DNA from: Pyrodictiaceae archaeon
GTDB lineage: Archaea > Thermoproteota > Thermoprotei_A > Sulfolobales > WANQ01
NCBI GenBank assembly: GCA_015521735.1
Contig: WANQ01000043.1
Span: forward strand, 30,454 to 94,453
DNA length: 64,000 nucleotides
Direction of reading: 5' to 3'
Every line of letters begins with the position of its first letter. The first letter of the stretch is position 1. Shown piece by piece: positions 6,211 through 30,018 of the stretch. A program made the translations under genes and the position numbers. The notes under the pieces were generated by a model. That model was not told the origin of the DNA. It saw only the letters and a list, made by a program, of their open reading frames with translations, and did not search any database.

Positions 6211-6212
6211 GT

Positions 6213-6479
6213 TTACTCACCCTCATATCTCTCAGTCTTCTTTATCACAAACAATAGAACAGCAGGAATCAAGCCAACAGATACGGGAATGTAAACCAGA
6301 ACTATGTCTGGAGCCATTAACACATAGTAGATTAACGCATACATAGAACTCTGAATAGCAGAGAAAACAACAGCCCTAACAAGATCACGTTCACGTATAG
6401 CTAAGTAGGCAGCAACAACACTAGTTAACGCAAACAATGTAAGTAAAGCTAAAGTAAAGACCTCTAACACTACAATCAC
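6213..6479 (-). CDS. Mrp subunit, DUF4040/MbhD-like
   Basis: Small three-TM protein with RDLVRAV and LMAPDIVL motifs; lies inside the mnh operon. Confidence 0.82.
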   Translation of the reverse strand: MIVVLEVFTLALLTLFALTSVVAAYLAIRERDLVRAVVFSAIQSSMYALIYYVLMAPDIVLVYIPVSVGLIPAVLLFVIKKTERYEGE

Positions 6480-6850
6480 CCCTTAATCCTAGCTCTATCC
6501 TCCTCTAAGTGGTCAACAACTTTTGGTTTAACAGCAACTACTCCTGCTCTATGAGCTGCACGTGCAAGAACATGAGTACCTACTGGTGCTAAGATGACAA
6601 TTAATATTGCTGTAATAATGCTTGCACCAGCTAGGAAGAACCTATATGTGCCAAGCCATTCAGCTCCAAGAGCTATAAGGGCAACACCAATTAATGGTAC
6701 AAATGCTCCACCAATAGTACCAACTGTTGCAGCATGCAATCTTACATAGAAGTTAGGGAAACGTAGCATACCTATACTTGCAGCTAAATCACAGAAAACC
6801 CCTATAGCTACCAGTATCTCCCCTAAGTACACTAGTATCTCGTTAATCAT
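6476..6850 (-). CDS. mnhG: Mrp/Mnh antiporter subunit G
   Basis: IGMLRFPNFYVRLHAAT and APVGTHVLARAA. Confidence 0.9.
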   Translation of the reverse strand: MINEILVYLGEILVAIGVFCDLAASIGMLRFPNFYVRLHAATVGTIGGAFVPLIGVALIALGAEWLGTYRFFLAGASIITAILIVILAPVGTHVLARAAHRAGVVAVKPKVVDHLEEDRARIKG

Positions 6851-6853
6851 ATC

Positions 6854-7138
6854 TTAATCACCCATATCACGTGCTTCAAAGTACTTAGATACATATACAT
6901 CTAAAGCATAAACCCATAAGGATAATACAACAGCACATGATATGAGTATAGGTGACCTGTAGAGAATAGATAATAGGGCTAGGAAAGCCGCAATATCAAA
7001 CGATAGAGCATCAATCGCCAATACTGAGTCGGGTATAGTAGGGCCACGTATAGCACGTATAATATACAATGTGAATGCTAGAAGGTATAAGGGGAAAACA
7101 GCTAGTATGAACAGTGTAACTTGTTGTTCAAGGCTCAA
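6854..7138 (-). CDS. mnhF: Mrp/Mnh antiporter subunit F
   Basis: RAIRGPTIPDSVLAID motif. Confidence 0.88.
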   Translation of the reverse strand: MSLEQQVTLFILAVFPLYLLAFTLYIIRAIRGPTIPDSVLAIDALSFDIAAFLALLSILYRSPILISCAVVLSLWVYALDVYVSKYFEARDMGD

Positions 7139-7235
7139 ACCCCTTATCCCCCCACATAGTTAGCGTTAACCAGATAAAAACTTATGCAACTTTTGATATA
7201 ATCGTATAGTATTAGTAAAAGTATTGTTAGGTAAA

Positions 7236-7493
7236 TCAATCCTCTAACACCAACTTAACATATTCATCTCCACCTATTTCACGGCCAATAAGCTTCCGAA
7301 CCAATTCTAGATCAGTTACATCTAGTTCAAAATTCCTTGAAAGCAAATTAAGGTATTCTCTACCAATAAACGCTATATCATCTAAGCTTAACCTCTTAAC
7401 CAAACTACAAGTACTATAAGACGAGACTATATGCCTTGACACTGGATTAAGTACTTCATGGTACTTACAAACATATACTAGTATCCCCTTCAC
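7236..7493 (-). CDS. Small hypothetical protein at the end of the group 4 hydrogenase operon
   Basis: Start overlaps the small-subunit stop codon (translational coupling); no recognisable motif. Confidence 0.6.
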   Translation of the reverse strand: MKGILVYVCKYHEVLNPVSRHIVSSYSTCSLVKRLSLDDIAFIGREYLNLLSRNFELDVTDLELVRKLIGREIGGDEYVKLVLED

Positions 7494-7990
7494 TTTACCT
7501 CAACCACCTCCTCCTTAACCTTAGGCTTAGCTATACCAAGCAAAACCGCTACACCATAAATTATTGCTTCAGGTCTAGCAGGGCATCCTGGAACATAGAC
7601 TAGTTTATCTATTTCAACTCCATTCTCCTCTAACACCTTTTTCAATCCTTCAACACCACCACTAACACTATACGAGTCATGCCATATACCTCCACCTACA
7701 GCACAAGCACCAATAGCTAGCACTAGCCTTGGCCTAGGAACAGCTCTTAACGCATTTACAACCTTAGGCAATGTTTTACGCGTCACGGGCCCAGTCATTA
7801 ATACTAGATCAGCATGTCTAGGAGAAGCTACTGGCTTTATACCAAATCTCTCAACATCAAAGTATGGTGTAAGTACATCGAGTATCTCTATATCACAGGC
7901 ATTACAGCTACCAGTATTAAGGTGGAAAACCCAGATACTCCTACGTATAGCTTTAAGTGCTTCTAATAAGTTATCTCTCCGATTCTCCAT
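7490..7990 (-). CDS. Group 4 [NiFe]-hydrogenase small subunit (HycG/NuoB-like)
   Basis: TGSCNACDIE, SPRHAD, IGACAVGGG and VPGCPARPE. Confidence 0.93.
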   Translation of the reverse strand: MENRRDNLLEALKAIRRSIWVFHLNTGSCNACDIEILDVLTPYFDVERFGIKPVASPRHADLVLMTGPVTRKTLPKVVNALRAVPRPRLVLAIGACAVGGGIWHDSYSVSGGVEGLKKVLEENGVEIDKLVYVPGCPARPEAIIYGVAVLLGIAKPKVKEEVVEVK

Positions 7991-8510
7991 AAATCATCCC
8001 CCTACCCATCATTAATCCTTCAATAAATCTACGCTTACGGCACCTGGACCCCATGTGAACATATGTCTCAGTTACTGGTACCCTTGATACAACGTAGCTT
8101 ATCATTCTCTCAGTAGCAGTGGTTTCTTCACCACAACAACTACATGTAGCCTTATAGTGTATAACTCTAGAGTTGAGATCACCTATATTATCAGTGGCTA
8201 ACTCAAATTCCCTACTAATAGTTATAGCTCCTACAGGACATACATCAGCACATCTACCACAGTATATGCATCTACCTATAAAGTAGTTGAGAGCTCTTCT
8301 TTCACCATCATCTACTAGCGTTAACGCATTACTAGGACAAGCATTAACACATGCACCACAGCCAATACACTTACTTGCATCAATACGTATTCTTCCACGA
8401 AACTCCGGTGTAACTAGAGGTGGCTGGAAAGGATACCTAACAGTTACTACTCCGGATCTATGAGCTATTCCTATTAGTTTAAATGGCTTAAGGAGGCTCA
8501 TATCAAACAC
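7971..8510 (-). CDS. 2x[4Fe-4S] subunit (HycF/NuoI-like)
   Basis: TVRYPF...FRGRI, CIGCGACVNACP and CIYCGRCADVCP. Confidence 0.92.
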   Translation of the reverse strand: MFDMSLLKPFKLIGIAHRSGVVTVRYPFQPPLVTPEFRGRIRIDASKCIGCGACVNACPSNALTLVDDGERRALNYFIGRCIYCGRCADVCPVGAITISREFELATDNIGDLNSRVIHYKATCSCCGEETTATERMISYVVSRVPVTETYVHMGSRCRKRRFIEGLMMGRGMIYGESER

Positions 8511-10174
8511 CCAATACAGTTTATTTTAGATAGCTTACGTAGAGAGATAATTCTACGCTTACGTGTACGAGCATCTACTACGACTACACGATCAGTACAA
8601 GAAAAGCATGGATCAATACTCGCAATAGTTAATGGTGCATCAGCTAGTGGTGCATCCTTTAACATAACTTTTAGTGCAGGAATATTCTGGTATGTTGGAG
8701 CTCTAACTCTCCATCTATAGGGTCTACCCTTACCAGTTATAATGAAGTGTATGTCCTCACCACGTGGCGCTTCAACACTTGAAACACCTATCCTACCCTC
8801 TGGTATCTCTAGTTCCTCAGCCATTATTGGTCCTTGAGGTAGTTGGTCTAGTAGTTGGCGTATGATTTCAATACTCTCAAGGACCTCGTCAACTCTAACA
8901 AGTAGTCTAGCTAAATTATCTCCTTCACTATAGACTGGTACCTTAAATGAAACCTCCTTATACGCTGCATAGGGGTAATCTCTTCTAACATCGCGGTTCA
9001 GCCCCGAAGCCCTTGCTACGGGTCCTACAACACTATATGCTCTAGCATCATGTTTAGGAAGTATACCTGTACCTGTAGCACGCTTAACCACTTGCGGGAC
9101 ACTTGTTATAACTTCAACAAGTTTCTTGAACTCGTCCTCAACCCATTTAACTGTGTCTAAGACCTTACCTATCTTATCTCTATTAATGTCCTTTCTAACA
9201 CCTCCTACAAGGTTTATACCATATGTTTTACGGCTACCAGTTAACAGCTCAGCTAAAACCATTGTCTTCTCACGTATTCTCCAAGCATGCATAAAGCCAG
9301 CATCATATCCTAGGAGATGACATGCTACACCAATCCATAATAGGTGGCTGTGAAGCCTCTCTACCTCAAGTACAAGTGATCGTATATATAGTGCTCTTTC
9401 AGGAACATCTATTCTAGCAGCATTCTCAACTGCTTGTGTATAGCATACAGAGTGTACGAAGCCACAAATACCACATATACGTTCAGCTAAGAATGGTACT
9501 TGTTGATAAGTAAATCTTGATTCACCAAGCTTCTCAATACCTCTATGGACATGGAAGCCGTTGTATCTTACATCTACTACTCTTTCACCTTCAACATATA
9601 ACTCAAAGTACTCTGGCTCATGTAGTGCTGGATGATAGGGGCCTACTGGTATTCTTGGCCCACTTATAGCCTCTCTACTTCTAAGAGAGGGTTCAGGTCT
9701 AATATTGTAGGCTACATCCTTACGTAGAGGGTAAAGTCCTTCGGGCCAATCCTCAGGTAAAATAAATCTATATAGTCTTCTACCTTCAACTCTTATACCA
9801 AGTAGATCATACATTTCAAGCTCATACCAGTCAGCTGAAGGAGCAATATCTACAACACTAGGTATACTAGGCTTATCCGAGTCCATGTACGCTACTACTA
9901 TTATGTTAACGTGCTTACTGTCTAGGCCGAAAACATAGTACGCTGAAAACACGCCCTTAACTGGGCGTTCATCTACACCTGCAACTGTTCTAAGATACGC
10001 GTCTAAGTCATTATGTATGATCTTTACTGCTTCTCTAATCCTCTTAACGGGAACTTCAACTAGTATTCCTGCACCAGGAACATACTCTACACTACGTGCT
10101 ATATGGCCTAACTTCTCAGTCAACTGAGCTCTTACTTCTTCCAAGTCTTGTTTACTTGGCTCAAAATCTACCAT
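8498..10174 (-). CDS. Group 4 [NiFe]-hydrogenase large subunit (HycE-like, NuoC+NuoD fused)
   Basis: GPYHPALHEP, ERICGICGFVH (L1), IDPCFSCTDR (L2) and a C-terminal extension. Confidence 0.95.
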   Translation of the reverse strand: MVDFEPSKQDLEEVRAQLTEKLGHIARSVEYVPGAGILVEVPVKRIREAVKIIHNDLDAYLRTVAGVDERPVKGVFSAYYVFGLDSKHVNIIVVAYMDSDKPSIPSVVDIAPSADWYELEMYDLLGIRVEGRRLYRFILPEDWPEGLYPLRKDVAYNIRPEPSLRSREAISGPRIPVGPYHPALHEPEYFELYVEGERVVDVRYNGFHVHRGIEKLGESRFTYQQVPFLAERICGICGFVHSVCYTQAVENAARIDVPERALYIRSLVLEVERLHSHLLWIGVACHLLGYDAGFMHAWRIREKTMVLAELLTGSRKTYGINLVGGVRKDINRDKIGKVLDTVKWVEDEFKKLVEVITSVPQVVKRATGTGILPKHDARAYSVVGPVARASGLNRDVRRDYPYAAYKEVSFKVPVYSEGDNLARLLVRVDEVLESIEIIRQLLDQLPQGPIMAEELEIPEGRIGVSSVEAPRGEDIHFIITGKGRPYRWRVRAPTYQNIPALKVMLKDAPLADAPLTIASIDPCFSCTDRVVVVDARTRKRRIISLRKLSKINCIGCLI

Positions 10175-10176
10175 GC

Positions 10177-11085
10177 CTAAGCACCCAAGTATCCCAATAC
10201 ACTATAGGCTATAGTTAATGGTGTATAGATTTTAAGAAGACTACGTGGCGCTAAGTCTATTCTAGAACGCCCTAACACCACTGAGACTACTGCGAATACT
10301 ATCCACAACACTACTAGTACTAGTAGGAATACTCCTATAGACGCTAGTCCAAGTACATTAGCGAATGGCAATACTATTAGATCTGCTAATATAGCATACA
10401 GTATGAGCCTCTTCAAGTAATGAGCATAGAGAGCTAAGCCTAGTACTGGTCCACTAAACTCCACTAGTACTCCAGAAGCAAGCTCTGGTTCAGCTTCACC
10501 TATATCAAAAGGTATCCTCCCCGAAGCCACGTAACATGCAATACCTAGTACGACTAAGAGTAGGATATATGATAACGTTAACCTAAAACCAACCAAGCCA
10601 GTAAAGCTTGAAGACCCAGTAATCAATGCTAATGCTATAAGGCTTAACGCAAGGAAAAACTCGTTAACAAGACCCAGGCCTGCTTCACGGAAAACACCTA
10701 TAGTAGCATAAGGATTACCTGAGGCAAGCGAGCTAACAGTCCATAGAAGCTGTAATGCTATTACTAGGACTAGAACCAACAATATGTCAGGTAATCCTAG
10801 GGTAAACGGGTTAGGTACACCATAAGGTATTATGGAAAGTGTTACAAGTGCTAAAGTATAGAGTAAGCCTACAAGTAATGGTACAAGTAAGCCTCCTTCC
10901 GGTAAAACTAGTTCCTTAGAAAAGAGCTTTAAAATATCATACCATGTCTGAAGTATGCTTGGAGGACCTATACGACTATGTAGTTTTGCCCTAATCTTAC
11001 GTTCAATACCATCTAGGAGAGGAGCGAGTAAAGTCAAGCACACGAATAATACAATAGATAATGCAATGTTAACCTCTAGTTGCAT
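10177..11085 (-). CDS. Hydrogenase membrane subunit (HycD/NuoH-like)
   Basis: GIERKIRAKLHSRIGPP and RIPFDIGEAEPELASGVLVEFSG. Confidence 0.92.
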   Translation of the reverse strand: MQLEVNIALSIVLFVCLTLLAPLLDGIERKIRAKLHSRIGPPSILQTWYDILKLFSKELVLPEGGLLVPLLVGLLYTLALVTLSIIPYGVPNPFTLGLPDILLVLVLVIALQLLWTVSSLASGNPYATIGVFREAGLGLVNEFFLALSLIALALITGSSSFTGLVGFRLTLSYILLLVVLGIACYVASGRIPFDIGEAEPELASGVLVEFSGPVLGLALYAHYLKRLILYAILADLIVLPFANVLGLASIGVFLLVLVVLWIVFAVVSVVLGRSRIDLAPRSLLKIYTPLTIAYSVLGYLGA

Positions 11086-11374
11086 AGAGAAACACCGTTA
11101 ACACTACTATTGAGACTGTAAGCAAGAAGCCTATGTATAGAGATGACATTACAAGAGACTTCTCAATAGACTTCTGTAGCGTGTTAACAATTGATGCTAG
11201 CTTCTTAGAAAACGATATTATCTTCTGCTCAGTCTTCTCCCCCAAGCTAGTTGATGCAACAAATACTGTTGCGGCAAAGCCTATTATTGAGGGCTTAAGC
11301 TTCCCTAGACTACGCCTAATCTTCTCTAACGCCTTCTCAAAGCTAAATATCGTTGATGCTCTAGCATAACTCAT
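11069..11374 (-). CDS. Small membrane protein of the hydrogenase operon (possibly a detached antiporter-subunit C-terminal helix)
   Basis: Overlaps both neighbours; amphipathic region plus a C-terminal TM helix. Confidence 0.6.
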   Translation of the reverse strand: MSYARASTIFSFEKALEKIRRSLGKLKPSIIGFAATVFVASTSLGEKTEQKIISFSKKLASIVNTLQKSIEKSLVMSSLYIGFLLTVSIVVLTVFLYATRG

Positions 11375-12912
11375 GGGTAAGCACCACCTAACCAGATCTC
11401 CTCAGTTCTAATCTTTTTCTGCGCGAGTATAAATATATAGGACATTATTAAACCAAGTAATGCAACAAAATTTATAAATAATACTAACAATCCTAAAGTA
11501 GTATACTGGGCTAACAATGGGACTACTAGCCCTAAGGCAAAGTTTACTCCAAGACCATATCCTTCAGCAATTGACAAGAGCCTATACTTTAACACACGAC
11601 TACGTATAGGCTTATAGCCTCCATAATACGTGCTTAAATACTTTAACCCATATACTAGTCCTGAAGCAGAAAGGAATACTAGTGCTACTAATGGTATAAT
11701 TGATAGTACTCCATAGTTCATTGAAGCATAGACCAAGACTATGAAGGTATAGAGTTTTGCAGCAAACCCTATTGTTGATGGAGAACCTATGAGACTTAGA
11801 ACACCAGTTATTGTTGCTAATGAGCCTTGTTGATCTATTCTTGAAAGATATCCTAGCTCATATATATCTCTGGTATTAGCGAGTATCTCAATACTACCAG
11901 CATTAATAAATAGCAAAGACTTAGCTACACCATGCGCAATCATTAATGTATACAATGCATAGAGCACACTAATACTATACCCTGTATAAATGTATATTCC
12001 AAGTAGGGACATAAGCATACCAGAATAAGCCATAGTAGAATACGATAATAATCTCTTAACATCCCGTTGAACAAGTGCTTGAGCTGAAGCATATACTACT
12101 GTTACAGCACCTAGAACCACAAGTAAGTACTCCAACAATACTATGTGGGGTAAAACAACTTGTAGAATCCTTAAAACACCGTAAATACTCATTTTCTCCA
12201 TTACACCACTAAGCATAGCTGATGCTGGCGACGGAGCTAGGGTATAAGCATCTGGTAGCCAGAAGTGTAAGGGTACTAGTGCTGCCTTAGCTATAAAGCC
12301 TATGAATAAGAGTACAGTTATTATTGGTCCAACACTTATTCCTAAACCTGATAAGTCTGTAAAGCTGGCTGTTAAGGCCTTGTCCAAGCCTATATGATAT
12401 GATGTAACTGCTAGTAAGGTGAATAACGAGAAATCTGCTGTAAGAGCACCTACTATAAGATACTGGATACCTGCTCTCCAAGACTCACGTGTACCCTCAG
12501 ATAATATTATCATGAACCCTATAAGCTCTGTTATAATCCAGAATACTACGAACTCAAGTAACATAGTAGAAGTGTATAGTAAGAGTAGTGAAGCCGCGAA
12601 TATGTCCATGGGTAGTTGTAGTGTACGTGCAATACCATAGAGTACTCTTGAGTATCCCTCCGTATGCAGTGTTACTGCTATGCCTACTAAGCCCAGCAAT
12701 AAAAGGAATGGATATGATACTTGGTCAACGATCTCAAGGTAGAATGCCGATAAAGGTATCAATACTATTATAAGCGAGTAGCCTAAAAGCCTTAGAATCC
12801 TCGATAACCTTTGCTTACTATCAACTAGGATACTACCTAATATTATTAGAGCTGACGTAATGGTTACGTATAAGTACTTGTACATCAACATGTTAGCGAC
12901 CTGGATAAGCAT
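11371..12912 (-). CDS. Antiporter-like hydrogenase membrane subunit (HyfB/NuoL-M family)
   Basis: KAALVPLHFWLPDAYTLAPSPASAMLSG and KRLLSYST. Confidence 0.9.
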   Translation of the reverse strand: MLIQVANMLMYKYLYVTITSALIILGSILVDSKQRLSRILRLLGYSLIIVLIPLSAFYLEIVDQVSYPFLLLLGLVGIAVTLHTEGYSRVLYGIARTLQLPMDIFAASLLLLYTSTMLLEFVVFWIITELIGFMIILSEGTRESWRAGIQYLIVGALTADFSLFTLLAVTSYHIGLDKALTASFTDLSGLGISVGPIITVLLFIGFIAKAALVPLHFWLPDAYTLAPSPASAMLSGVMEKMSIYGVLRILQVVLPHIVLLEYLLVVLGAVTVVYASAQALVQRDVKRLLSYSTMAYSGMLMSLLGIYIYTGYSISVLYALYTLMIAHGVAKSLLFINAGSIEILANTRDIYELGYLSRIDQQGSLATITGVLSLIGSPSTIGFAAKLYTFIVLVYASMNYGVLSIIPLVALVFLSASGLVYGLKYLSTYYGGYKPIRSRVLKYRLLSIAEGYGLGVNFALGLVVPLLAQYTTLGLLVLFINFVALLGLIMSYIFILAQKKIRTEEIWLGGAYP

Positions 12913-14365
12913 AGCCTGCTACACCCTTCAGTATTCTAAGCCTAATATTATAGTAGAATGTGTATACGAGTAATATTATTAGGAGAAGTGAGAATGCGTT
13001 AACTAGTGTTAGAGTAAACATTATCTCAGTATACGATATTAGTGGTGATATAAAACCATAGACTATGTTCATTGAAGCTAGCGCTAGTTCTATGTATTGT
13101 GCTTGGTTTTCTACAGGCTTACCTGTAACTCTACCTGCTTCCCAGTGAACTCTAAGTATTCTTACACCATAGTATAGTGATACAAGTATACTATAGCCTA
13201 TGAGGAGTAATACAGCTATTGTTAATGGACTTAAACCAGCCTCCAATACACCTATTATTGATAATAGCTTGCTCATAAAGCCTATTGTTGGTGGAATACC
13301 TATAACCGATAGTATTGAGAATAGACTTGAAAGAGAAGATACGGGTACGTATGCTACAAGACCTTGTACTTCATCTAGAATTCGTGTATGTGTGGATAAC
13401 TCTATTGTACCAGCATTAATGAATAACGATGCCTTGTATAAGCCGTGAGCATATATACTTGTAATAAATGCTAGGTAAAGATACGTACTCGCGGGATGAA
13501 GGAAGTATAGTGCTTGTATTACTGCTATTAGCCCAGTATTACCTATTGTTGAGTAAGCAAGCAGTCTCTTAACATCACGTTGGCTAAGGAGCATGAGGAA
13601 GCCGTAAACACATGTAATGAAGCCCATACCCAGTAATAGATACTTTGACCACACATCCATTAATACTATGTTGTAGAGCCTCATTAATGCATAGAAGCCT
13701 AGCTTTACTGTAACACCACTAAGCACAGCTGATGCAGGAGATGGTGCAGTAGAATGTGCATGTGGTAGCCAGAAGTGTAGGGGTACTAGTGCTACTGTAG
13801 TAGTATAGCCTATCATTAATAGAAGAACATAGTATGGGTTAACACTTATTGCCGGAAGAGACCATAAACTCGTGAGTAACGCCTTTTCTATGCCTATCTT
13901 TGAGGATAGTATAGCTAGTAATGCTAGAGCTGATACCTCAAAAGTCAATGCTTTAAGGAAGAAAAACCTATAGCCAGCTCTAAATGCTTCAACACCGCCT
14001 TCAAACGATACTAGGAGGAAGCCAATTATTTCAGACATAGTCCATAGTGCTATGAATCCTACTAGATTTGGTGCAAGAACAGTATATATCAACGATATGT
14101 TGAACAAGTCTACCAGTAATTGTAGTCTATCCTGTGAGCCATACTTTATCCTAGAGTACCATGAAGTGTAAAGTGATGAAGCTATTGATACAGGTATTAG
14201 TAAGATGAGAAACATTAAGGATACTTGGTCTACTAGACCGTATGAGACAGCTATTAGTGGAATAAGATAGACTATAAGCCTTGTAGCAACAAGACTCCAA
14301 ATACTAGGTCTACGGAAGACTAGGATTATGAGGAGAGATACGAGTAGTAAAATATATGTAATCAA
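12893..14365 (-). CDS. Antiporter-like hydrogenase membrane subunit (HyfB/NuoL-M family)
   Basis: VPLHFWLPHAHSTAPSPASAVLSG and KRLLAYST; paralog of the next gene. Confidence 0.9.
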   Translation of the reverse strand: MITYILLLVSLLIILVFRRPSIWSLVATRLIVYLIPLIAVSYGLVDQVSLMFLILLIPVSIASSLYTSWYSRIKYGSQDRLQLLVDLFNISLIYTVLAPNLVGFIALWTMSEIIGFLLVSFEGGVEAFRAGYRFFFLKALTFEVSALALLAILSSKIGIEKALLTSLWSLPAISVNPYYVLLLMIGYTTTVALVPLHFWLPHAHSTAPSPASAVLSGVTVKLGFYALMRLYNIVLMDVWSKYLLLGMGFITCVYGFLMLLSQRDVKRLLAYSTIGNTGLIAVIQALYFLHPASTYLYLAFITSIYAHGLYKASLFINAGTIELSTHTRILDEVQGLVAYVPVSSLSSLFSILSVIGIPPTIGFMSKLLSIIGVLEAGLSPLTIAVLLLIGYSILVSLYYGVRILRVHWEAGRVTGKPVENQAQYIELALASMNIVYGFISPLISYTEIMFTLTLVNAFSLLLIILLVYTFYYNIRLRILKGVAGYAYPGR

Positions 14366-14390
14366 CTATGACCCCCAATAGGAGGGTCCA

Positions 14391-14900
14391 TTAACCTAAC
14401 GTTATCATTCCCTCAAGCCTAGCTCTAACAAGTTGTTCTGCTCTACGATGCCTTATCTCGTCTGAAACCTTTCTAGGCTCACCATAGATTATTGCACGTG
14501 CAGGACACATAGCATAACATGCTGGTTCTAATCCCTGTCTCCTCAAGTCCATACATAAATCACACTTAGTGCTAACTCTTAGATCAGGGTCTAGTTCTGG
14601 TACACCAAAGGGACAAGCATATAGGCATGCCATACATCCAATACACTTCATTGGATCAACATATACTGCACCACTTTCATCTCTTCTCATAGCCCCAGTA
14701 GGGCAAACCTCTATACATGGTGCTTTACTACAATGCATACATGATAGCGGTATTTTCACTCCTATACTTGTTTCATAGATCTTTATGAACGGTTTACCAT
14801 CGTGTATGAAATCGCATACTGATTCACAGGTGCCACAGCCCATACATCTATCAAGGTCTATGTATCTTAGAAACGTTATGGGGTCTGACTGCGAGGCCAA
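14391..14900 (-). CDS. 4x[4Fe-4S] electron-transfer protein (HycB/CooF/DmsB family)
   Basis: CMGCGTCESVC, CMHCSKAPCIEVCP, CIGCMACLYACP and KCDLC...PACYAMCP. Confidence 0.93.
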   Translation of the reverse strand: MASQSDPITFLRYIDLDRCMGCGTCESVCDFIHDGKPFIKIYETSIGVKIPLSCMHCSKAPCIEVCPTGAMRRDESGAVYVDPMKCIGCMACLYACPFGVPELDPDLRVSTKCDLCMDLRRQGLEPACYAMCPARAIIYGEPRKVSDEIRHRRAEQLVRARLEGMITLG

Positions 14901-15098: not shown

Positions 15099-16166
15099 CT
15101 AGACTAGTTTCTTGGAAGTTAGCTCTAAGTGTATACTTTTTGCAGCGTATAGTCCTTGCTTTACAGCTGAGCCTATAAGACTAGGACCTGTAACAACATC
15201 TCCTGCTGCCCATATTTTTGGATTACCTGTTCTAAATCTCTCATCAACCTGTATTCTACCTCTACGATCAGCTTTAACTCCTAAATACTCGTTCTCGAAT
15301 GGTGGGGTTGCTATTTCACCTATAGCTTCTATGATTGTGTCTGCATCTAATATGAACTCGCTACCAGGTATTGGTATGGGTCTAGGCCTACCACTTTCAT
15401 CTGGTTCTCCAAGCTTCATTTTCTGTAACTCTATTCCCTTAACCCTATTGTTTTCACGTATAATTCTTGTAGGTGATACTAGCTCCATCCACTTTACTCC
15501 ACGGTTTATTAGCTTCCTAATCTCGTAGACACCTGCAGGAGCTTGCTTAATAGTTCTACGGTAAGCCATTATGACCTCTTTAGCTCCCTGGTTTAAAGCC
15601 TCCATTGCAGCGTCTACAGCACTTAATCCACCGCCTATAACTACTACTCTATTACCGATGTGTGGTTTATGTGGAATGTAGCCCTTATTGTATATTCTTA
15701 GCTCGTAGAGGAATTCTAGAGCAGACATTACACCTGGTCCTTCTTCTCCAGGACAGTGAAGTCTACGTGAACGCCATGTACCAGTAGTAATTAGTACTGC
15801 ATCATATTTGTCAACAAGGTCTTTCAACGAAACTATTCTCTCAACAAGTTTGTCTCCTTCATCTTCTCTAGGCTTACTATCACCAAACACCTTAGTCTTT
15901 GTAATGAATTCTACGTTAAATTTATCCCTTAACTCCTCAATACCCTCTAAGATATTTTCTGGTGGTATCCTCTCCTCCGGGATAGCAAATAACATGAGTC
16001 CTCCAGGTAGTGGTTGCTTGTCGTAGACGTGGACCTCGTATCCCCGACAAGCAAGGTATCCAGCAGCACTAAGACCAGCAGGTCCACCGCCAACTATAGC
16101 TATCTTGTACCTTCCTCTTCCAGGAACAATTGATGGAGGCTCCTTACACATAAACGTAAACTTCAA
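15099..16166 (-). CDS. GltD-like FAD/NAD(P)H oxidoreductase lacking the N-terminal Fe-S domain
   Basis: IVGGGPAGL, VIGGGLSAVD, AYRR (NADPH-type) and AAGDVVTGP. Confidence 0.9.
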   Translation of the reverse strand: MKFTFMCKEPPSIVPGRGRYKIAIVGGGPAGLSAAGYLACRGYEVHVYDKQPLPGGLMLFAIPEERIPPENILEGIEELRDKFNVEFITKTKVFGDSKPREDEGDKLVERIVSLKDLVDKYDAVLITTGTWRSRRLHCPGEEGPGVMSALEFLYELRIYNKGYIPHKPHIGNRVVVIGGGLSAVDAAMEALNQGAKEVIMAYRRTIKQAPAGVYEIRKLINRGVKWMELVSPTRIIRENNRVKGIELQKMKLGEPDESGRPRPIPIPGSEFILDADTIIEAIGEIATPPFENEYLGVKADRRGRIQVDERFRTGNPKIWAAGDVVTGPSLIGSAVKQGLYAAKSIHLELTSKKLV

Positions 16167-22098: not shown

Positions 22099-23385
22099 TT
22101 AGGCTTCTATGGGGTTAACTACATGTCCTATGAACAGTATTGTATTGGTATTTCTATCCCAGATCATGTATATGAATGGCTTATCAACTACTACTTCTTC
22201 ATCTACTACTGGAAGGGATTCCACAATTATTATTGCTGTAGCTGCAGCTGCTTCAGTTCCCTTCTCGTTTACCTTGATTACAGCTTGATGTACTACTTTA
22301 CTAACCCATATACTACCTACACCTACATTAGCCATCCTAGTTAAGTCAGCTCTACCTGGCGTGAAGACCTCTCTTACCCCTAGTTCTTTGAGTACTTCTA
22401 CTAGGTCTGTTCTCAATGTTATATTGAATTTAGGCATTATGAGCCAAATCTTTCTTCTAGAACTCTCCTCCTTAAGCTTGTTTAAGGCTTCTATAACTAG
22501 TTTTTGATACTTGTAGCGTATATCGTTGTGATTCTCGGGTACTATTACTATCATTGAAATACTTGTATTATTGTAGGGTACTTCTACTACTGTATAGCCA
22601 TCACCGTGTACTACTCTTAGCTTATCGCTAATCAACTCCATAGCTGGTACTTCAACATAGGTTTCACCAGTCCAGAACCTAATAGGTGATGTAGGCTTAA
22701 ACTCTTCAACCCAGTTAGCCTTAAAATAGATGACTGATACAATAACAGCTACAACATTTTCATCTACATCATCTCTACTAATTAGTTCTCTTATTAGGCC
22801 TCTCGTCTTAGTACTAACCCATTCATTGATATCCGAGACCAGCTGGCCAATACTTTCAAAGTACTTTACTTCTGCATCATAACATTTACGTACTAGTTCA
22901 ATATACTCTTCTCGGAAGGGGTATCCCTGCTTAAGCCAAATAGCATTAGCTACTATGAGTGCTGTATTATCATTATTGTTTAAAGGTAAAGAGCCTAGTA
23001 ATTCTTGATAAGCCTTACATAGGCTATTATCGGCTAAACCCATAACGCTACCTAGCTCTCTTCTAGTACTCCCATTAGCACCCTCATAGAGTAGTGTTAA
23101 CGCAATGTAAATGTTGAAAGGCGATACTACAGTATTCTTATTCCAGTTTCTCTCCAAGACCCTACCATATACTTTCAACGTGAAGTTGTTAATCCTTTCA
23201 ACTAGTTCGGGAACACTGACTTCATTAAAACTGGACTCATTGCTAGGATTTAGTACCCCAACATTTGCATTGTAGAGTTCTATGGATAACATAGTGAATG
23301 AGATAACTATAGTAGCTAGAATAATCATAGCTACTAGTACTATGAGAAACAATACCGTACTACGCATACATGCGCCCCATAACAT
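22099..23385 (-). CDS. Serpin (serine protease inhibitor) with N-terminal signal/TM anchor
   Basis: NTVVSPF, INEWVSTKTRGLI, IYFKANW, hinge EKGTEAAAAT and DKPFIYMI...ILFIGHVVNP. Confidence 0.95.
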   Translation of the reverse strand: MLWGACMRSTVLFLIVLVAMIILATIVISFTMLSIELYNANVGVLNPSNESSFNEVSVPELVERINNFTLKVYGRVLERNWNKNTVVSPFNIYIALTLLYEGANGSTRRELGSVMGLADNSLCKAYQELLGSLPLNNNDNTALIVANAIWLKQGYPFREEYIELVRKCYDAEVKYFESIGQLVSDINEWVSTKTRGLIRELISRDDVDENVVAVIVSVIYFKANWVEEFKPTSPIRFWTGETYVEVPAMELISDKLRVVHGDGYTVVEVPYNNTSISMIVIVPENHNDIRYKYQKLVIEALNKLKEESSRRKIWLIMPKFNITLRTDLVEVLKELGVREVFTPGRADLTRMANVGVGSIWVSKVVHQAVIKVNEKGTEAAAATAIIIVESLPVVDEEVVVDKPFIYMIWDRNTNTILFIGHVVNPIEA

Positions 23386-24596: not shown

Positions 24597-25685
24597 ATGT
24601 CTCTAACAGGATTATACTACGGTAAACCCGTGGAACTAGTAAAGCTTTTCAATACATTGAAGTCTAGAGGATACAAGGTAATAGGACCTAAGGTTGTTGA
24701 AGGTGTTATAAGGTTAGAGGAACTAGGCTCCTATGAAGAATTAGCAAGCAATGTAAGTGATATACAAGAACCTGGTAGATACAGGCTTGTAGACGGAGGC
24801 AAGTATTTTAGGCATGGACCTGATTCTCCTAAGAAGATGCTCTATCCGCCAAGACTAACATTGTTTAGGATTACTAAAGACTATAGGATAGAGGTACCAG
24901 AAGTAGAAGTACCTAAGATAGCCTTCTTCGCCTTAAAGCCATGTGATTTAGCGGCAATACAGGTTATGGACCGGGTTCAAGGCTGTTTAGGTGATGCATA
25001 CTATAACTTAGTAAGAAGGAATCTCGTCATAGTAGTTGAGAACTGTGTAGAACCTGGAGGAACATGTTTTTGTGCAACTATGGGTACTGGGCCAATAGCT
25101 TCTAAGGGATTTGATGTTGCTTTTACACGTATAAGAGATGACTTAGTGGTATTTGAGGCTGGTAGTAGCCTGGGAGTAGAGCTACTTGACGAACTAGAAC
25201 TAGAGCCTCTTGACGAGAAACTCTATAGGGAGTTCATTGATGTCGTACGTAGAGCTTACTCTAAGGCTAGACCCATAGAACTACCAGATAAGTTACCAGA
25301 ACTATTAGAGCTCACCTTAGACTCAGACATGTATAAGGAGATAGCTGAAAAATGCCTAGGATGCGCTAACTGCAACATGGTTTGCCCTACATGCTTCTGC
25401 TTTGACGTAATAGACATACCATACTATGATGGATCAGCTGAGAGAGTAAGGGTATGGGATGGATGCTTCTCCTACAATTACGCTGCAGTAGCTGGAGGAC
25501 ACTATCGTCCAGATCTATGGGCTAGGTATCGCCACTGGTTTCTACACAAATTCTCGTACTGGGTTAAGCAGTTTGGAACCTATGGATGTGTTGGATGTGG
25601 TAGATGTATCACATGGTGTCCTGTAGGAATAGATGTACGTGATACTCTCCGTAGAGCTATAAAGGAGGCTGAAAAACATGGTTAA
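24597..25685 (+). CDS. hydB: Group 3b sulfhydrogenase beta subunit (Fe-S)
   Basis: KPCDL, CFCATMGTGP, CLGCANCNMVCPTCFC and GCVGCGRCITWCP. Confidence 0.93.
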   Translation: MSLTGLYYGKPVELVKLFNTLKSRGYKVIGPKVVEGVIRLEELGSYEELASNVSDIQEPGRYRLVDGGKYFRHGPDSPKKMLYPPRLTLFRITKDYRIEVPEVEVPKIAFFALKPCDLAAIQVMDRVQGCLGDAYYNLVRRNLVIVVENCVEPGGTCFCATMGTGPIASKGFDVAFTRIRDDLVVFEAGSSLGVELLDELELEPLDEKLYREFIDVVRRAYSKARPIELPDKLPELLELTLDSDMYKEIAEKCLGCANCNMVCPTCFCFDVIDIPYYDGSAERVRVWDGCFSYNYAAVAGGHYRPDLWARYRHWFLHKFSYWVKQFGTYGCVGCGRCITWCPVGIDVRDTLRRAIKEAEKHG

Positions 25686-26514
25686 ACTTGAATACAAGCT
25701 CATACCTAAGATAGCTGTTGTAGAAGATGTTAGAGAGGAAACACCCAACGTAAGAACATTTTATTTAAGAGTAGATGATTTAGGCCAAGAACCACTACCA
25801 GGGCAATTCAATGAACTCTATATTCCTGGTGGTGGCGAGGTACCAATATCTGTTAGCGATATAGTTGAAGTGAACGGTAGGAAGCTTATAGCCCATACTG
25901 TTAGGTTTATTGGAAGTGTTACCTGGATGTTTAGTAGGCTAGAGAAGGGTTCACGTATAGGTATAAGAGGACCCTACGGTAAGGGCTGGCCTATTGAAAG
26001 GCTTAGAGGTAGGGATATACTATTAGTTGCAGGTGGCTTAGGCTTAGCTCCTCTTAGACCAGTTATACGTGAAGTAGAGAGGAACCGTGGCCTATATGGT
26101 AGACTCATAATACTGTATGGTGCACGTACACCAAGAGATCTCCTATACCGTTACGAATATCATCGATACGAGGATATACCTAATACAGAGCTATTAGTAA
26201 CAGTTGATAAAGCTACTAGTTCATGGAGAGGCCATGTAGGAGTTGTAACTAAGCTTATACCGCTAGTAGAGCTAGACGTTGAGAATACTATAGCTCTCGT
26301 ATGTGGACCAGAAATAATGATGAGGTTCACGGTTAAGGAGTTGAAGAAGAGGGGGTTCAAGGACAATCAAATCTACCTATCACTTGAAAGGAGAATGAAG
26401 TGTGGTGTAGGCTTATGTGGCCACTGTCAAATGGGACCCTACTTCGTATGTAAGCATGGACCTGTTTTCCCCTACTGGTTTATCAAGAAGTACTTCTGGG
26501 TGGATCAAATATGA
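25678..26514 (+). CDS. hydG: Group 3b sulfhydrogenase gamma subunit (FAD/NAD(P), 2Fe-2S)
   Basis: PGQF...GEVPIS, RGPYGKG, AGGLGLAP and MKCGVGLCGHC...VCKHGP. Confidence 0.93.
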   Translation: MVKLEYKLIPKIAVVEDVREETPNVRTFYLRVDDLGQEPLPGQFNELYIPGGGEVPISVSDIVEVNGRKLIAHTVRFIGSVTWMFSRLEKGSRIGIRGPYGKGWPIERLRGRDILLVAGGLGLAPLRPVIREVERNRGLYGRLIILYGARTPRDLLYRYEYHRYEDIPNTELLVTVDKATSSWRGHVGVVTKLIPLVELDVENTIALVCGPEIMMRFTVKELKKRGFKDNQIYLSLERRMKCGVGLCGHCQMGPYFVCKHGPVFPYWFIKKYFWVDQI

Positions 26515-27284
26515 AGAAGCTCCGTATAGCTGTTTACAAGTTTGCTAGTTGTGATGGATGCCAGCTACAGCTACTTAACCTTGAAGACGAGTTACTGGAT
26601 CTTGTAGAACACGTAGAGTTTGCAATGTTCTATGAGGCTAGTAGTGATGTTAAGCCAGGACCCTACGATGTAGCATTCATTGAAGGAGCAGTATCAACTC
26701 CTGAAGAAGAAGAAATCGTTAGGAAGGCTAGAGAGGAGTCTAAGATAGTTGTAGCTATTGGTGCATGTGCTACTGCTGGAGGAATACAGGCTCTTAGAAA
26801 CTGGGCTAATGTTGAAGAATACAAGAAGTACGTCTACCCTAACCCCGAATGGATTAAAGCCTTAGAGAAAGCCCACCCCATTTCAGATTACATTAAGGTA
26901 GACTACGAGATACGTGGATGCCCAGTAAGTAAGGAGCAGTTATCATTCTTTATAAGACAGTTACTCATAGGCAAGAAGCCTACACTACCAGTTGATAGCG
27001 TATGCATGGAGTGTAAGATGAAGGGTAATGTATGCTTAATGGTTACAAAGGGAATACCATGCCTAGGGCCCGTAACCATGGCTGGATGCGGTGCTATATG
27101 CCCAAGTTACGGACGTGGATGCTATGGATGCTATGGGCCCATGATTGACCCTAAACCCAGAGCATTAGCACAAGCATTCGTAAAGATGATGGGGTTGAGT
27201 AAACGGGATGTAGCTTTATTGTTCAAATCATTTACTGGTTGGAGTAAACCATTCCGTGAGGTGGTAGATGAGTATGGCAAGTGA
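26511..27284 (+). CDS. hydD: Group 3b [NiFe]-hydrogenase small (delta) subunit
   Basis: SCDGC, GACATAGG, RGCP and VCMEC...CLGPVTMAGCGAICP...CYGCYG. Confidence 0.94.
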   Translation: MKKLRIAVYKFASCDGCQLQLLNLEDELLDLVEHVEFAMFYEASSDVKPGPYDVAFIEGAVSTPEEEEIVRKAREESKIVVAIGACATAGGIQALRNWANVEEYKKYVYPNPEWIKALEKAHPISDYIKVDYEIRGCPVSKEQLSFFIRQLLIGKKPTLPVDSVCMECKMKGNVCLMVTKGIPCLGPVTMAGCGAICPSYGRGCYGCYGPMIDPKPRALAQAFVKMMGLSKRDVALLFKSFTGWSKPFREVVDEYGK

Positions 27285-28578
27285 AGTAGAAAGAACATTT
27301 AAAGTAGACTACCTTGCTAGAGTTGAAGGAGAAGGTAGAGTCTACGTTAAGATGAGAAATGGTAGAATAGAGAGAGTTGAAGTAGGAATATTTGAGCCTC
27401 CTAGATTCTTTGAAGCATTCCTTAGAGGTAGAAAATACCTTGAGGTACCAGATATTACAGCTAGAATCTGTGGTATATGCCCAATAGCATATATCATGAG
27501 CTCTAGCCGTGCATTCGAGAAATTATTTGGCATAGAGTTAACTGAAGAACTCAAAACGCTTAGAAGAATAATCTACCTAGGCGAATGGATAGAAAGCCAC
27601 ATGCTACACATAGCAATGCTCCATGCACCAGACTTCCTAGGATGCCATAGCATAATAGAGATAGCAAGAAAGCATCCACAATTCGCAAAAGACTCTCTAC
27701 TAGTCAAGGCATGGGGTAATAAGGTCATAGAAGTTATAGGTGGTAGATCAGTACACCCAGTTTCATGCCGTGTTGGGGGATTCCACCGAATAATAAAACG
27801 TGAACAACTACTAGGACTACTAAAGAAAATATATGATGTAAAAAATGCTGCTAAGAGAATACTTGAATTCGTACTACAACTACCAATACCAGATTTCAAA
27901 CGAGACATAGAGTTCATGTCACTTAAAGGAGATAAAGAGTACCCAATACTTGAAGGTAGAGTTGTATCCAATAAGGGCATAGATGTACCAGAAGACGAGT
28001 TCGAGAAAGTAGTAGAAGTACAACAAGTACCATACTCTAATGCACTAAGATACAGGGTTAAGGGTAGAGGAACATATGTTACCGGGCCTATAGCAAGATT
28101 CAATCTAAACTACAAGCTACTACTACCAGAGGTAAGAGAAGTAGTAGAAGCCTATGGATATAAGGCACCATTAACAAATACTTATCAAAGCATTATAGCA
28201 AGAGCAGCAGAAGTATACCAAGCAGTCCTAGAACTAGAAGAACTAATATTATCATATCGTGAACCTAGTCAACCATACATAGAAGGCGAAGTAAGAGAGG
28301 GGTGGAGTGCAGCTATAACGGAGGCACCAAGGGGAATGCTTTACCATGCCTATAGAGTAGATAGTGAAGGATACGTAGTAGATGCTAACATAATACCTCC
28401 TACAGCACAAAACCTAGCAGCAATGGAGGAGGACATAAAAGCACAGGAAGAAGTACTGTGGCGTGAACCCTATGAGAAAGCAAAACTACTAGTACAGCAA
28501 ACAATAAGAAACTATGATCCATGCATATCATGCTCCGTACATACGGTAAAAGTAATAATAGAGAAACAACATTCTTAG
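27268..28578 (+). CDS. hydA: Group 3b [NiFe]-hydrogenase large (alpha) subunit
   Basis: ARVEGEG, RICGICP, EAPRG and YDPCISCSVH plus extension. Confidence 0.95.
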   Translation: MSMASEVERTFKVDYLARVEGEGRVYVKMRNGRIERVEVGIFEPPRFFEAFLRGRKYLEVPDITARICGICPIAYIMSSSRAFEKLFGIELTEELKTLRRIIYLGEWIESHMLHIAMLHAPDFLGCHSIIEIARKHPQFAKDSLLVKAWGNKVIEVIGGRSVHPVSCRVGGFHRIIKREQLLGLLKKIYDVKNAAKRILEFVLQLPIPDFKRDIEFMSLKGDKEYPILEGRVVSNKGIDVPEDEFEKVVEVQQVPYSNALRYRVKGRGTYVTGPIARFNLNYKLLLPEVREVVEAYGYKAPLTNTYQSIIARAAEVYQAVLELEELILSYREPSQPYIEGEVREGWSAAITEAPRGMLYHAYRVDSEGYVVDANIIPPTAQNLAAMEEDIKAQEEVLWREPYEKAKLLVQQTIRNYDPCISCSVHTVKVIIEKQHS

Positions 28579-28596: not shown

Positions 28597-30018
28597 TTAC
28601 TTTCTCAAATATTTTCCTTCAACTATTTTTAGCGTCCTATACCTACACTCCACACATACCTCAAATGGTGACCTTGAGTAGGGTTGTCCACCACCCATTA
28701 TACATCCATTAGGGCATATGTATAATACTATTGTTCCAGTCTTTATCAATCCTCTCTTAACAGCCTCTAGTATACCCTTTACTTCATAAGGTCCTACAGC
28801 TTTAACATACCCATATGTTTTAGGCATTATTTCTCCATCAGGTTTACTAGGTCTTAGGTCTTTTAGATCCATCTTTTTCAGCATTACTTGTAATTCTCTT
28901 GTAGTTATAACGTGTTCTCCATGTAGTTTTCTTGCAACACATTGCGTTATTAGTACACTATGATATCCTAGTCTTGGTGTTGGTGGACGTACAAGGTATT
29001 TCCTTAGTTCAGGGTAGAACTGGTTTACATACTTGTATTCTGCTTCGCTTACTGGCACTATGTTTAACTCGTGTGTGAGCTGTATGTCTGCTAAAGGCGA
29101 CCATATTATTATCCTAGTAAATCCTAGTTCTCTAAGCGCGGTAATAACCTTACCAGGATCTACTTCTTCTGCTTCTGCTAGTGCTGCTAATGCTTCTGGC
29201 TCTATGTATGCTATTGGATTATGTTTTGAGAGGAGCCCTTGAACGTTTTCTATATCATTTCTGTAAACTAGGGCTCCTACAGGACAGTAAGCTGTACATA
29301 AACCACATAGTATGCATGTAGTGTTCTCAAATGGCTCATAGAATGGTGTTGCAACTGCTATGTCTATTCCACGGTTAACGAATCCTAAAGCATTTACACC
29401 TAGACTACTACATACTCCAACGCATCTACCACAAATAATACATTTATCTGCATGGAGCCTTAGTATCTTACCCCTAATATCACGTAAGTATTCACGACAG
29501 AACTCAAATCTCCTCTCACCTTGCTTAAACCATGATCCTCCCACTATCTTGGCTATGAGTTCTACTAACTCCCACTTGTTAATTGGGCATCCTCTTAGCC
29601 AGTAATCAACTCTAACATATCTTGAAATAGGTTCTCCTTCAATGATTCCTTCATGCTTCTCTTCGCTTCCATAGACTTTCTTTACTCCATTAATGCTTCT
29701 TCCTTTCATAAGCCCTGGTATTCCTCCTAGGAGACTACATGTACCTAGGGCTACTAGTATCTTCGCCTTTCTCCTAATCTCCTTTAGCTTCTCAGCATCC
29801 TCTATGGAAGCTACTGCTCCTTCAACGAATACTATATCGTATTCCTCTCTTTCACTAGTATAGCCTAAAAGAGGTTCATAGGCTATTTCTATACCGTATT
29901 TCTCCATTAACTCGATTAGCTTCTCACCTAGATTAACTATTTCATGCCTACATCCCTCGCATCCTGCTAGAGAGTATATTCCTACAATAATTTTGTCTGC
30001 CATGGATTTATACCTCAA
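28597..30018 (-). CDS. Chimera: [NiFe] small-subunit proximal-cluster domain + 2x[4Fe-4S] + degenerate [FeFe]-hydrogenase H-cluster domain
   Basis: GCEGC/EGAV/GTC/RGCP; then CIICGRCVGVC...NRG...CILCGLCTAYCPVGAL; then ALRELGF, QFYPEL, QCVARK, VITTREL and CPNGCIMGGGQP. Likely start is the ATG at 30003. Confidence 0.88.
   Translation of the reverse strand: MRYKSMADKIIVGIYSLAGCEGCRHEIVNLGEKLIELMEKYGIEIAYEPLLGYTSEREEYDIVFVEGAVASIEDAEKLKEIRRKAKILVALGTCSLLGGIPGLMKGRSINGVKKVYGSEEKHEGIIEGEPISRYVRVDYWLRGCPINKWELVELIAKIVGGSWFKQGERRFEFCREYLRDIRGKILRLHADKCIICGRCVGVCSSLGVNALGFVNRGIDIAVATPFYEPFENTTCILCGLCTAYCPVGALVYRNDIENVQGLLSKHNPIAYIEPEALAALAEAEEVDPGKVITALRELGFTRIIIWSPLADIQLTHELNIVPVSEAEYKYVNQFYPELRKYLVRPPTPRLGYHSVLITQCVARKLHGEHVITTRELQVMLKKMDLKDLRPSKPDGEIMPKTYGYVKAVGPYEVKGILEAVKRGLIKTGTIVLYICPNGCIMGGGQPYSRSPFEVCVECRYRTLKIVEGKYLRK

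Follow-up and report, generated by a model that had tools for sequence, protein, structure and literature searches.

The gene design treated here has been published as the group F [FeFe]/group 3f [NiFe] hybrid hydrogenase, in which a HydA-HyhS fusion is combined with HydB, HydC, HydD and HyhL (Greening et al., Cell 2024; main text, PMC11216029). That article classes the group F fusions as true [FeFe] hydrogenases with conserved Cys ligands of the H-cluster, models four potential electron arms, and reports H2 production for one (Th1) of two group F proteins tested. The proteins modelled and assayed stem from the phylum Thermoplasmatota; the 21 group F entries also include Thermoproteia, Bathyarchaeia and Lokiarchaeia, which may be of the Cys-less type described below. 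It is further stated there that most archaeal [FeFe] genomes are devoid of HydEFG, and that the [FeFe] hydrogenase tree cannot be rooted because there is no non-hydrogenase relative. Here, we describe a fusion gene of the same design, which concludes an operon of five genes within 64,000 nucleotides of DNA from a Pyrodictiaceae archaeon (contig WANQ01000043.1, positions 30,454 to 94,453; this whole stretch is the window). The C-terminal part of the encoded protein, the H-like module, had been described in an initial annotation as a vestigial, non-catalytic [FeFe] domain that may still bind a [4Fe-4S] cluster. Judged from its sequence, and with a probability of roughly 0.6, the H-like module would be a [4Fe-4S]-type site that is conserved but non-catalytic and terminates a side arm, in a NuoE/NuoF/NuoG-linked [NiFe] hydrogenase of group F hybrid design.

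Among systems with a known mechanism, the nearest is a bacterial enzyme, NiFe-HydABCSL from Acetomicrobium mobile (PDB 7T2R/7T30; Feng et al. 2022, PMC8880783). Its HydA has lost the H-cluster motif and carries in its place a [4Fe-4S] cluster named A5. As described by Feng et al., electrons follow the path flavin mononucleotide (FMN)-B1-A1-A2-A3-S1-[NiFe], A4/A5 is a dead-end third arm at the dimer interface that is "most likely nonfunctional" and has a structural role there, and ferredoxin is assigned to the C-terminal clusters of HydB (PMC8880783).

The locus in the window shares with the group F hybrid the fusion of an N-terminal small-subunit domain to a C-terminal HydA domain, and the five contiguous genes including a four-cluster "HydD" conduit. 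The two differ in the ligands: whereas the H-cluster Cys residues are conserved in the published proteins, the window protein belongs to a clade of 63 sequences that lacks any Cys in the L1 motif and retains three of the four cubane Cys. Moreover, the fusion gene is the last one of the window operon, whereas it is located between HydB and HydD in the loci of Thermoplasmatota. Common to the window and the A. mobile enzyme are a Bfu-type HydB with HydC, a [NiFe] large subunit, a single-cluster small-subunit module, and a HydA-like part without the canonical H-cluster motif. In contrast to the two reciprocal chimeras of the window, HydA and HydS of A. mobile are separate, whole polypeptides; the HydD of the window furthermore has two extra small-subunit-type clusters. 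Thus, both the hybrid gene design and the loss of the H-cluster from the HydA-like subunit of a bacterial [NiFe] Bfu enzyme are already published. A Cys-less clade of archaeal hybrid fusions with its own invariant Ser/Glu set was not found in the literature, where Greening et al. was covered by the main text and the supplements may hold it.

Eukaryotes also contain descendants of HydA that have ceased to make an H-cluster. Nar1 and IOP1 (NARFL) are thought to keep Fe-S clusters; they are stand-alone proteins of cytosolic Fe-S protein assembly and are found outside hydrogenase operons. The initial annotation had named them as the analogous case. Nar1-type entries did not turn up in our general homology and structure searches, in which no Nar1 reference sequence was compared. 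Cluster A5 of A. mobile would seem to be the nearer analogy.

The fusion protein ends in a compact H-domain

A word-indexed search yielded 57 close homologues of the fusion protein (328-484 aa), and the next matches were bacterial HydA at E about 1e-23. The alignment used below comprises 56 homologues, as the truncated sequence P0042 was dropped; 7 further members were added later, which resulted in an enlarged set of 63. The source names among the close homologues include Sulfolobales, Desulfurococcaceae, Ignisphaera, Zestosphaera, Thermoprotei, Bathyarchaeota, Njordarchaeales, Odinarchaeota and Asgardarchaeia.

The stretch 28597-29260, to which the initial annotation referred, corresponds to residues 254-473, i.e. 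to the H-like domain, and comprises the final 221 codons of the open reading frame. Its fusion to a [NiFe] small-subunit domain within a group F hybrid operon had been missed. The C-terminal part matched PF02906 (Fe_hyd_lg_C) with 34 bits (cut-off 22.1; E 3.2e-8), and a phmmer match to HydA1 of T. kivui (8a6t) extended over the L3 motif of the H-like domain. An AlphaFold2 model of the fusion, which was built on the 56 family sequences, has a mean predicted local distance difference test (pLDDT) value of 87.8, with blocks of 84-98 from residue 251 onward. In this model, residues 174-473 superpose on residues 128-540 of CpI with a VIA Z of 20.7 and a root-mean-square deviation (rmsd) of 3.1-3.3 Å (299 residues aligned). 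The assignment of the H-like stretch as a compact [FeFe]-hydrogenase H-domain fold is therefore solid and not the result of a chance match. Compared to a bacterial HydA, the family has lost the C-terminal tail and four stretches in the interior (279-292, 328-346, 364-378, 409-461 and 550-580 in the numbering of sequence P0058). The prediction of a homodimer from two copies of residues 174-473 gave a score of 0.00, which is evidence neither way. A pseudogene or an assembly artefact was rejected, because the reading frame is intact and orthologues exist in the own genome and in 8 of 40 related genomes.

The two preceding domains are likewise well defined. In the small-subunit domain, the Cys residues of the proximal cluster (C20, C23, C94 and C144) are invariant in all 56 family members. 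Residues 7-172 of the model superpose on the single-cluster HydS of A. mobile (7t2r_E; VIA Z 20.5, rmsd 2.5 Å) and also on the delta subunit of P. furiosus SHI. The ferredoxin module (F-domain) is most similar to its counterparts in HydA proteins, with 112 bits for the group A6 model, 100.7 bits for T. kivui HydA1 (8a6t) and 88.8 bits for T. maritima HydA, and all eight of its Cys residues are invariant (56/56).

The L1 cysteines are missing and the pocket is rebuilt

In [FeFe] hydrogenases, the L1 motif contains the proton-relay Cys (C299 in CpI) and a cubane-ligand Cys (C300). The register between the H-like module and CpI is free of gaps and was anchored on a common FYPE motif; the CpI numbers were taken from a phmmer alignment of a bacterial HydA with CpI chains. 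The motif strings quoted in the initial annotation, namely IVPVSEAEYKYVNQFYPEL (residues 320-338), TQCVARKLH, VLYICPNGCIMGGGQP and CVEC, are all present in the translation of 28597..30018(-). Neither the C299 nor the C300 position holds a Cys; V323 and S324 stand there, and re-alignment to CpI gave no intact L1 (P1) motif. Position 323, the equivalent of the proton-relay Cys, is hypervariable and contains 11 different residues across the family. In contrast, S324 and also E327 are invariant (56/56). The statement that the proton-transfer Cys and one cubane ligand are missing thus holds for the two Cys residues, but the ligand position is not vacant, being filled by an invariant Ser. The three other cubane Cys, C360, C435 and C439, remain in the gap-free register, as had been noted, and are invariant in the alignment (56/56) and in the enlarged set (63/63). 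A Cys at either L1 position was found in 0 of 56 members and in 0 of 63. L3 has retained the CxxxC pattern as well as GGGQP.

Further equivalences to CpI are E273 to A230, E275 to S232, T358 to M353, and Y433 to M497. Compared to CpI, the [2Fe] pocket is therefore altered by five replacements (A230 by Glu, S232 by Glu, M353 by Thr, K358 by Arg, M497 by Tyr), at positions that we take to be contacts of the [2Fe] subcluster. The K358-equivalent position contains an Arg in most family members, a Trp in 10 and a Lys in 2. The complete list of family-invariant residues in the H-like part reads E273, E275, S324, E327, C360, C435, C439, G444 and Q445.

The initial annotation had also pointed to a CVEC motif near the C-terminus, which is indeed present. 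It occurs in 11 of the 56 family members, all of which belong to the closest subclade, and in the form CV[ED]C in 7 of 9 orthologues from the own and related genomes. As a fourth ligand common to the whole family it was rejected, since only these 11 members carry it.

The Cys-less clade is not alone in having a Ser at the C300 position. The solved and active group A HydA1 of A. woodii (7q4v) has the L1 sequence TSCSPGW and thus also contains a Ser there. Among 86 bacterial HydA-like matches, a sample biased to sequences that have words in common with the queries, 74 were of the Cys-Ser and 11 of the Cys-Cys type, and 1 gave no match. However, every HydA of the Cys-Ser type that was examined keeps the Cys at C299, which is absent from the Cys-less clade. 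The A. woodii enzyme further retains K358, a full H-domain and enzyme activity, whereas the window protein has lost C299 and K358. In the literature, the residue ligating the cubane in HydA of the TSCSPGW type was not found; the papers listed for "TSCSP", ten in number, were unrelated to hydrogenases. S324 may be a genuine oxygen donor or hydrogen-bond partner of the cubane. As a side observation, 71 of the 74 Cys-Ser HydA contain a Cys 22 residues past the first L1 Cys (CpI position 321).

The Cys-less sequences form one conserved clade

Mean pairwise identities within the family amount to 0.40 (H-like module), 0.46 (small-subunit domain) and 0.56 (ferredoxin module). Judged by these values and by the family-specific invariant residues, the H-like module is conserved to nearly the same degree as the other domains, is under constraint and does not drift; the term "vestigial" overstates its decay. 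Among the invariant residues, E327 is specific to the Cys-less clade, and Cys-bearing relatives have an Ala or a Lys at this position. A precomputed PF02906 match exists for only 26 of the 57 close homologues. When the C-terminal 220 residues were used as the query of an exhaustive phmmer search, no more than 20 proteins were obtained at E<=1e-3. Four short sequences, P0122, P0125 and P0130 (184-196 aa) and P0127 (242 aa), consist of a Cys-less H-like module alone; they may be stand-alone genes or fragments at contig ends.

Cys-bearing fusions are found in other archaea. In a clade of Brockarchaeota, L1 reads "PCC" (P0131, P0136, P0137) or "PCS" (P0138), and "PCS" is also found in P0129. Further fusions, about 500-620 aa in length, were obtained from a scan of genomes and belong to Thermoplasmatota (L013, L016, L017) and Hadarchaeota (L014, L015). 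Their L1 is "TWCP" or "SWC", i.e. the Cys at C300 is kept and C299 is replaced by Trp.

A phylogenetic tree of 78 sequences was calculated from the ferredoxin module onward (291 columns, IQ-TREE quick search, LG+C20), with 6 bacterial HydA as an outgroup; the L1 columns were kept, and Greening et al. concede in their main text that the rooting of HydA is uncertain (PMC11216029). All 72 archaeal fusions are on one side of the branch that separates them from the 6 bacterial HydA (98 in the Shimodaira-Hasegawa-like approximate likelihood ratio test, SH-aLRT). The window protein thus groups with the fusions of Brockarchaeota, Thermoplasmatota and Hadarchaeota to the exclusion of bacterial HydA, which is a further likeness to the group F hybrid. 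The 63 Cys-less sequences form one clade (SH-aLRT 99) beside the Brockarchaeota clade and P0129, nested among Cys-bearing fusions. The Trp-Cys clade of Thermoplasmatota and Hadarchaeota branches first in the rooted tree. Given the bacterial HydA root, this topology suggests a single loss of the L1 cysteines.

The operon combines NuoE/NuoF/NuoG-like genes with a [NiFe] large subunit

The coordinates of the operon genes and of the domains and motifs of the fusion protein are listed in Table 1. The best PDB matches of HydB are the B subunits of Bfu-type enzymes, including NiFe-HydB of A. mobile (7t2r_B; 695 bits over residues 66-650). Residues 4-52 of HydB constitute a CCxxC "NuoF prefix" domain (NF040902, 74.5 bits); the matches of the solved Bfu B subunits begin only at residue 43-67. 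HydD is composed of two parts. Residues 5-125 match residues 7-127 of A. woodii HydA1 with 88.6 bits (a [2Fe-2S] and a His-ligated [4Fe-4S] cluster), and residues 121-221 match residues 161-260 of P. furiosus SHI delta with 74.7 bits (8 Cys, clusters of the medial and distal type). According to these alignments, both HydA and the small subunit have been divided and their parts joined anew, which gave two reciprocal chimeras, the fusion protein and HydD.

The gene order HydC-HydB-HydD-HyhL-fusion recurs in 4 of 12 related loci (L006, L008, L010 and L011); it is also found in locus L007, which is cut inside HydB. Locus L009 from Bathyarchaeia (contig JAWCGL010000029.1, 3794-8380) contains HydC, HydB, HydD and the fusion; in the DNA retrieved, HyhL is missing between the latter two genes. 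As this contig stops about 480 bases past the fusion, a downstream copy of HyhL is still possible.

The genome to which the window belongs has 2.03 Mb on 44 contigs, a completeness of 100% and a contamination of 0.87%. No hydE, hydF or hydG gene was found in the 64-kb window, in agreement with the initial annotation, and the search of the whole genome likewise gave none above the cut-off: the best match for HydE had 21.4 bits (cut-off 254.6), the best match for HydF 44.1 bits (cut-off 325.6), and HydG gave no match. A genome-wide search with PF02906 at E<=0.001 returned nothing; since it also misses the weak match of the fusion itself, it only shows the absence of a stronger [FeFe] gene. HypD (422 bits) and a protease of the HycI type (35.8 bits) are present in this genome. 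Of 41 genomes searched, 9 including the own one possess a full-length orthologue of the fusion (same genus 1, same family 4, same order 3). All 9 are devoid of an L1 Cys and have kept the Ser.

Table 1. Genes of the hybrid operon, and domains and motifs of the fusion protein. Residue numbers refer to the 473 aa product.
Feature	Position	Strand	Remarks
HydC / NuoE-like thioredoxin-like [2Fe-2S] subunit, 176 aa	33921..34451	(-)	Operon gene 1; PF01257 135 bits; same position in 5 related loci
HydB / NuoF-like flavoprotein, 651 aa	31969..33924	(-)	CCxxC prefix, N-terminal extension, C-terminal 2x[4Fe-4S] (Bfu type); Pfam, NCBIfam
"HydD" chimera, 223 aa	31288..31959	(-)	HydA/NuoG N-terminus and C-terminal half of [NiFe] small subunit; Pfam and NCBIfam agree
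HyhL, group 3 [NiFe] large subunit, 423 aa	30020..31291	(-)	RICGAC and DPCLPCAVH motifs; PF00374 113.8 bits; ShyA and HydA (sulfhydrogenase alpha) models 220-225 bits
Fusion protein, 473 aa	28597..30018	(-)	Last gene of five-gene operon; gene callers start at ATG, residue 6 (468 aa)
[NiFe] small-subunit N-domain, residues 1-165	29524..30018	(-)	PF01058 84 bits over residues 20-157
2x[4Fe-4S] ferredoxin module (F-domain), residues 186-255	29254..29463	(-)	8 Cys; Fer4 family matches
Compact H-domain-like module, residues 256-450	28669..29253	(-)	PF02906; pLDDT blocks 84-98; VIA Z 20.7 to CpI
L1 remnant IVPVSEAE, residues 320-327	29038..29061	(-)	V323=C299, S324=C300, E327=W303 (CpI)
L2 remnant TQCVARKLH, residues 358-366	28921..28947	(-)	C360=C355, R363=K358 (CpI); C360 invariant
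L3 VLYICPNGCIMGGGQP, residues 431-446	28681..28728	(-)	C435=C499, C439=C503 (CpI)
CVEC, residues 455-458	28645..28656	(-)	Clade-specific; N-terminus of last helix (452-470, AlphaFold2 model)

Proposed role of the H-like module

In the complex that we envisage, H2 would be formed or cleaved at the [NiFe] site of HyhL, which is encoded next to the fusion, and the electrons would leave through the proximal [4Fe-4S] cluster of the fused small-subunit domain. Clusters of the HydA type, which are spread over the fusion and HydD, would then carry them to the flavin of HydB. HydB and HydC would couple the [NiFe] site to NAD(P) and probably to ferredoxin; the five-gene complex is probably electron-bifurcating. 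The S1-type domain of the fusion is covalently joined to the A3/A4-type ferredoxin module, which matches the contact between S1 and A3 in A. mobile. The H-like module itself would make no H-cluster, because the L1 Cys residues and nearly all residues that hold the [2Fe] subcluster have been lost. It would most likely bind one ordinary [4Fe-4S]-type cluster by means of C360, C435, C439 and an oxygen donor, either S324 or a Glu, with E273, E275 and E327 nearby. This cluster would be the end of a side arm similar to A4/A5, off the main path, and would serve a structural or electron-parking function, as proposed for A5. The two functional claims of the initial annotation agree with this picture: a non-catalytic site fits the loss of the L1 Cys, the pocket replacements, the missing HydEFG and the intact [NiFe] large subunit next door, and the binding of a [4Fe-4S] cluster fits the three cubane Cys that are invariant across 63 sequences.

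Several points weigh against the assignment as an ordinary side-arm cluster, and some of them would favour a still working or sensory [FeFe] site, in which a [2Fe]-type subcluster is attached to a cubane held by three Cys and a Ser, and which would make the complex a true two-catalyst hybrid. The gene design is that of group F, whose members are classed as true [FeFe] hydrogenases and for which H2 production of Th1 was measured (PMC11216029). C439, the equivalent of the bridging Cys C503, and the whole GGGQP are kept and invariant, and an Arg in place of K358 is a conservative exchange, so that a modified binuclear or other site is possible. The Ser at C300 is shared with A. woodii HydA1 and with 74 of the 86 matches of the biased bacterial sample. 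The lack of HydEFG is weak evidence, because it is reported for most archaeal [FeFe] genomes (PMC11216029). Compaction alone is no argument for inactivity either, since the largest deletion (53 residues) is common to the Cys-bearing Brockarchaeota clade. Nevertheless, a working or sensory [FeFe] site is very unlikely in our estimation: all Cys-Ser HydA examined keep C299, which is hypervariable here; the equivalents of K358, M353, M497, A230 and S232 are replaced, two of them by an invariant Glu; the fusions of Thermoplasmatota, the phylum of the tested type, keep the C300 Cys as "TWCP", whereas the Cys-less clade does not; and HydE, HydF and HydG are absent from a genome that is 100% complete. 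Further points concern the side arm as such. S324 and the Glu residues are only candidate ligands as to their reach to the fourth Fe, and the four invariant acidic and Ser residues seem to exceed the apparent needs of a dead-end cluster. In addition, the sequence match of A. mobile HydA (7t2r_A) is limited to the ferredoxin part, and this chain is absent among the 50 structural matches listed. A close homology between the C-terminal module and A. mobile HydA was therefore rejected, and the loss of the H-cluster in A. mobile is to be regarded as an independent, parallel and convergent event.

The surplus of invariant residues could be explained if the H-like site were a working third arm, with an oxygen-rich metal site (S324, E273, E275, E327), that docks a partner such as ferredoxin or gates and tunes electron flow. 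None of the 56 members, which span Thermoproteota, Bathyarchaeia and Asgard sequences, deviates at the four non-Cys pocket residues, E327 is confined to the Cys-less clade, and four potential electron arms have been modelled by Greening et al. (PMC11216029). We consider this explanation unlikely, as the ferredoxin of A. mobile is assigned to the C-terminal clusters of HydB (PMC8880783), a domain that the HydB of the window possesses, and as the invariant Glu residues could just form a salt bridge with R363 and fill an empty pocket. It is quite improbable, in turn, that the Cys-less module is a distinct metal site that was selected as such, comprising the three Cys, S324 and the three invariant Glu, of oxygen-rich or mixed-metal nature and with a redox or sensing function, or, if the root of HydA lies inside the archaeal fusions, a surviving form that predates the H-cluster. 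A domain free of any cofactor, which acts as a pure scaffold and holds the complex together, would agree with the loss of one Cys ligand and with the structural role of the A4/A5 region at the dimer interface of A. mobile (PMC8880783). There is little to recommend it, however, since the invariance of C360, C435 and C439 at identities down to about 35% is hard to explain without a role as ligands. For the H-like module, we thus favour a [4Fe-4S]-type site that is non-catalytic and terminates a side arm.

Consequences for the classification of hybrid hydrogenases

Archaeal hybrids have been published as complexes with two H2-activating sites (PMC11216029), yet a broad clade cannot ligate an H-cluster in the canonical manner. 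The 63 representative sequences of this Cys-less clade come from Thermoproteota, from Bathyarchaeia and from Asgard lineages, and the complex of these organisms is probably a Bfu-type hydrogenase that is [NiFe]-only. In surveys of metabolism or evolution, it would be a mistake to score the respective genes as [FeFe] hydrogenases. Screens with PF02906 will split the clade arbitrarily, because fewer than half of the close homologues (26 of 57) have a precomputed match. The series of L1 motifs, which leads from CC over CS or WC to xS, provides natural variants for probing the role of the L1 Cys residues and of the pocket in H-cluster binding.

Other genes of the window

Two additional [NiFe] hydrogenase gene sets are located in the same window. 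A second soluble set at 24597-28578 (+) faces the hybrid operon and resembles a sulfhydrogenase (group 3b). Its genes code for a Fer4_22 protein of 362 aa, an NAD-binding/DHODB Fe-S protein of 278 aa, and small and large subunits of 257 and 436 aa, respectively. The third set, at 2834-14900 (-) with 15099-16166 (-), is of the membrane-bound, Mrp-linked group 4 type. It comprises subunits similar to Mrp antiporters, a fused NuoC/NuoD-type large subunit (558 aa), and NuoB-, NuoI- and NuoH-like proteins, followed by a pyridine nucleotide-disulfide oxidoreductase. Finally, a serpin of 428 aa (22099-23385 (-); PF00079, 313 bits) adjoins a D-aminopeptidase gene.

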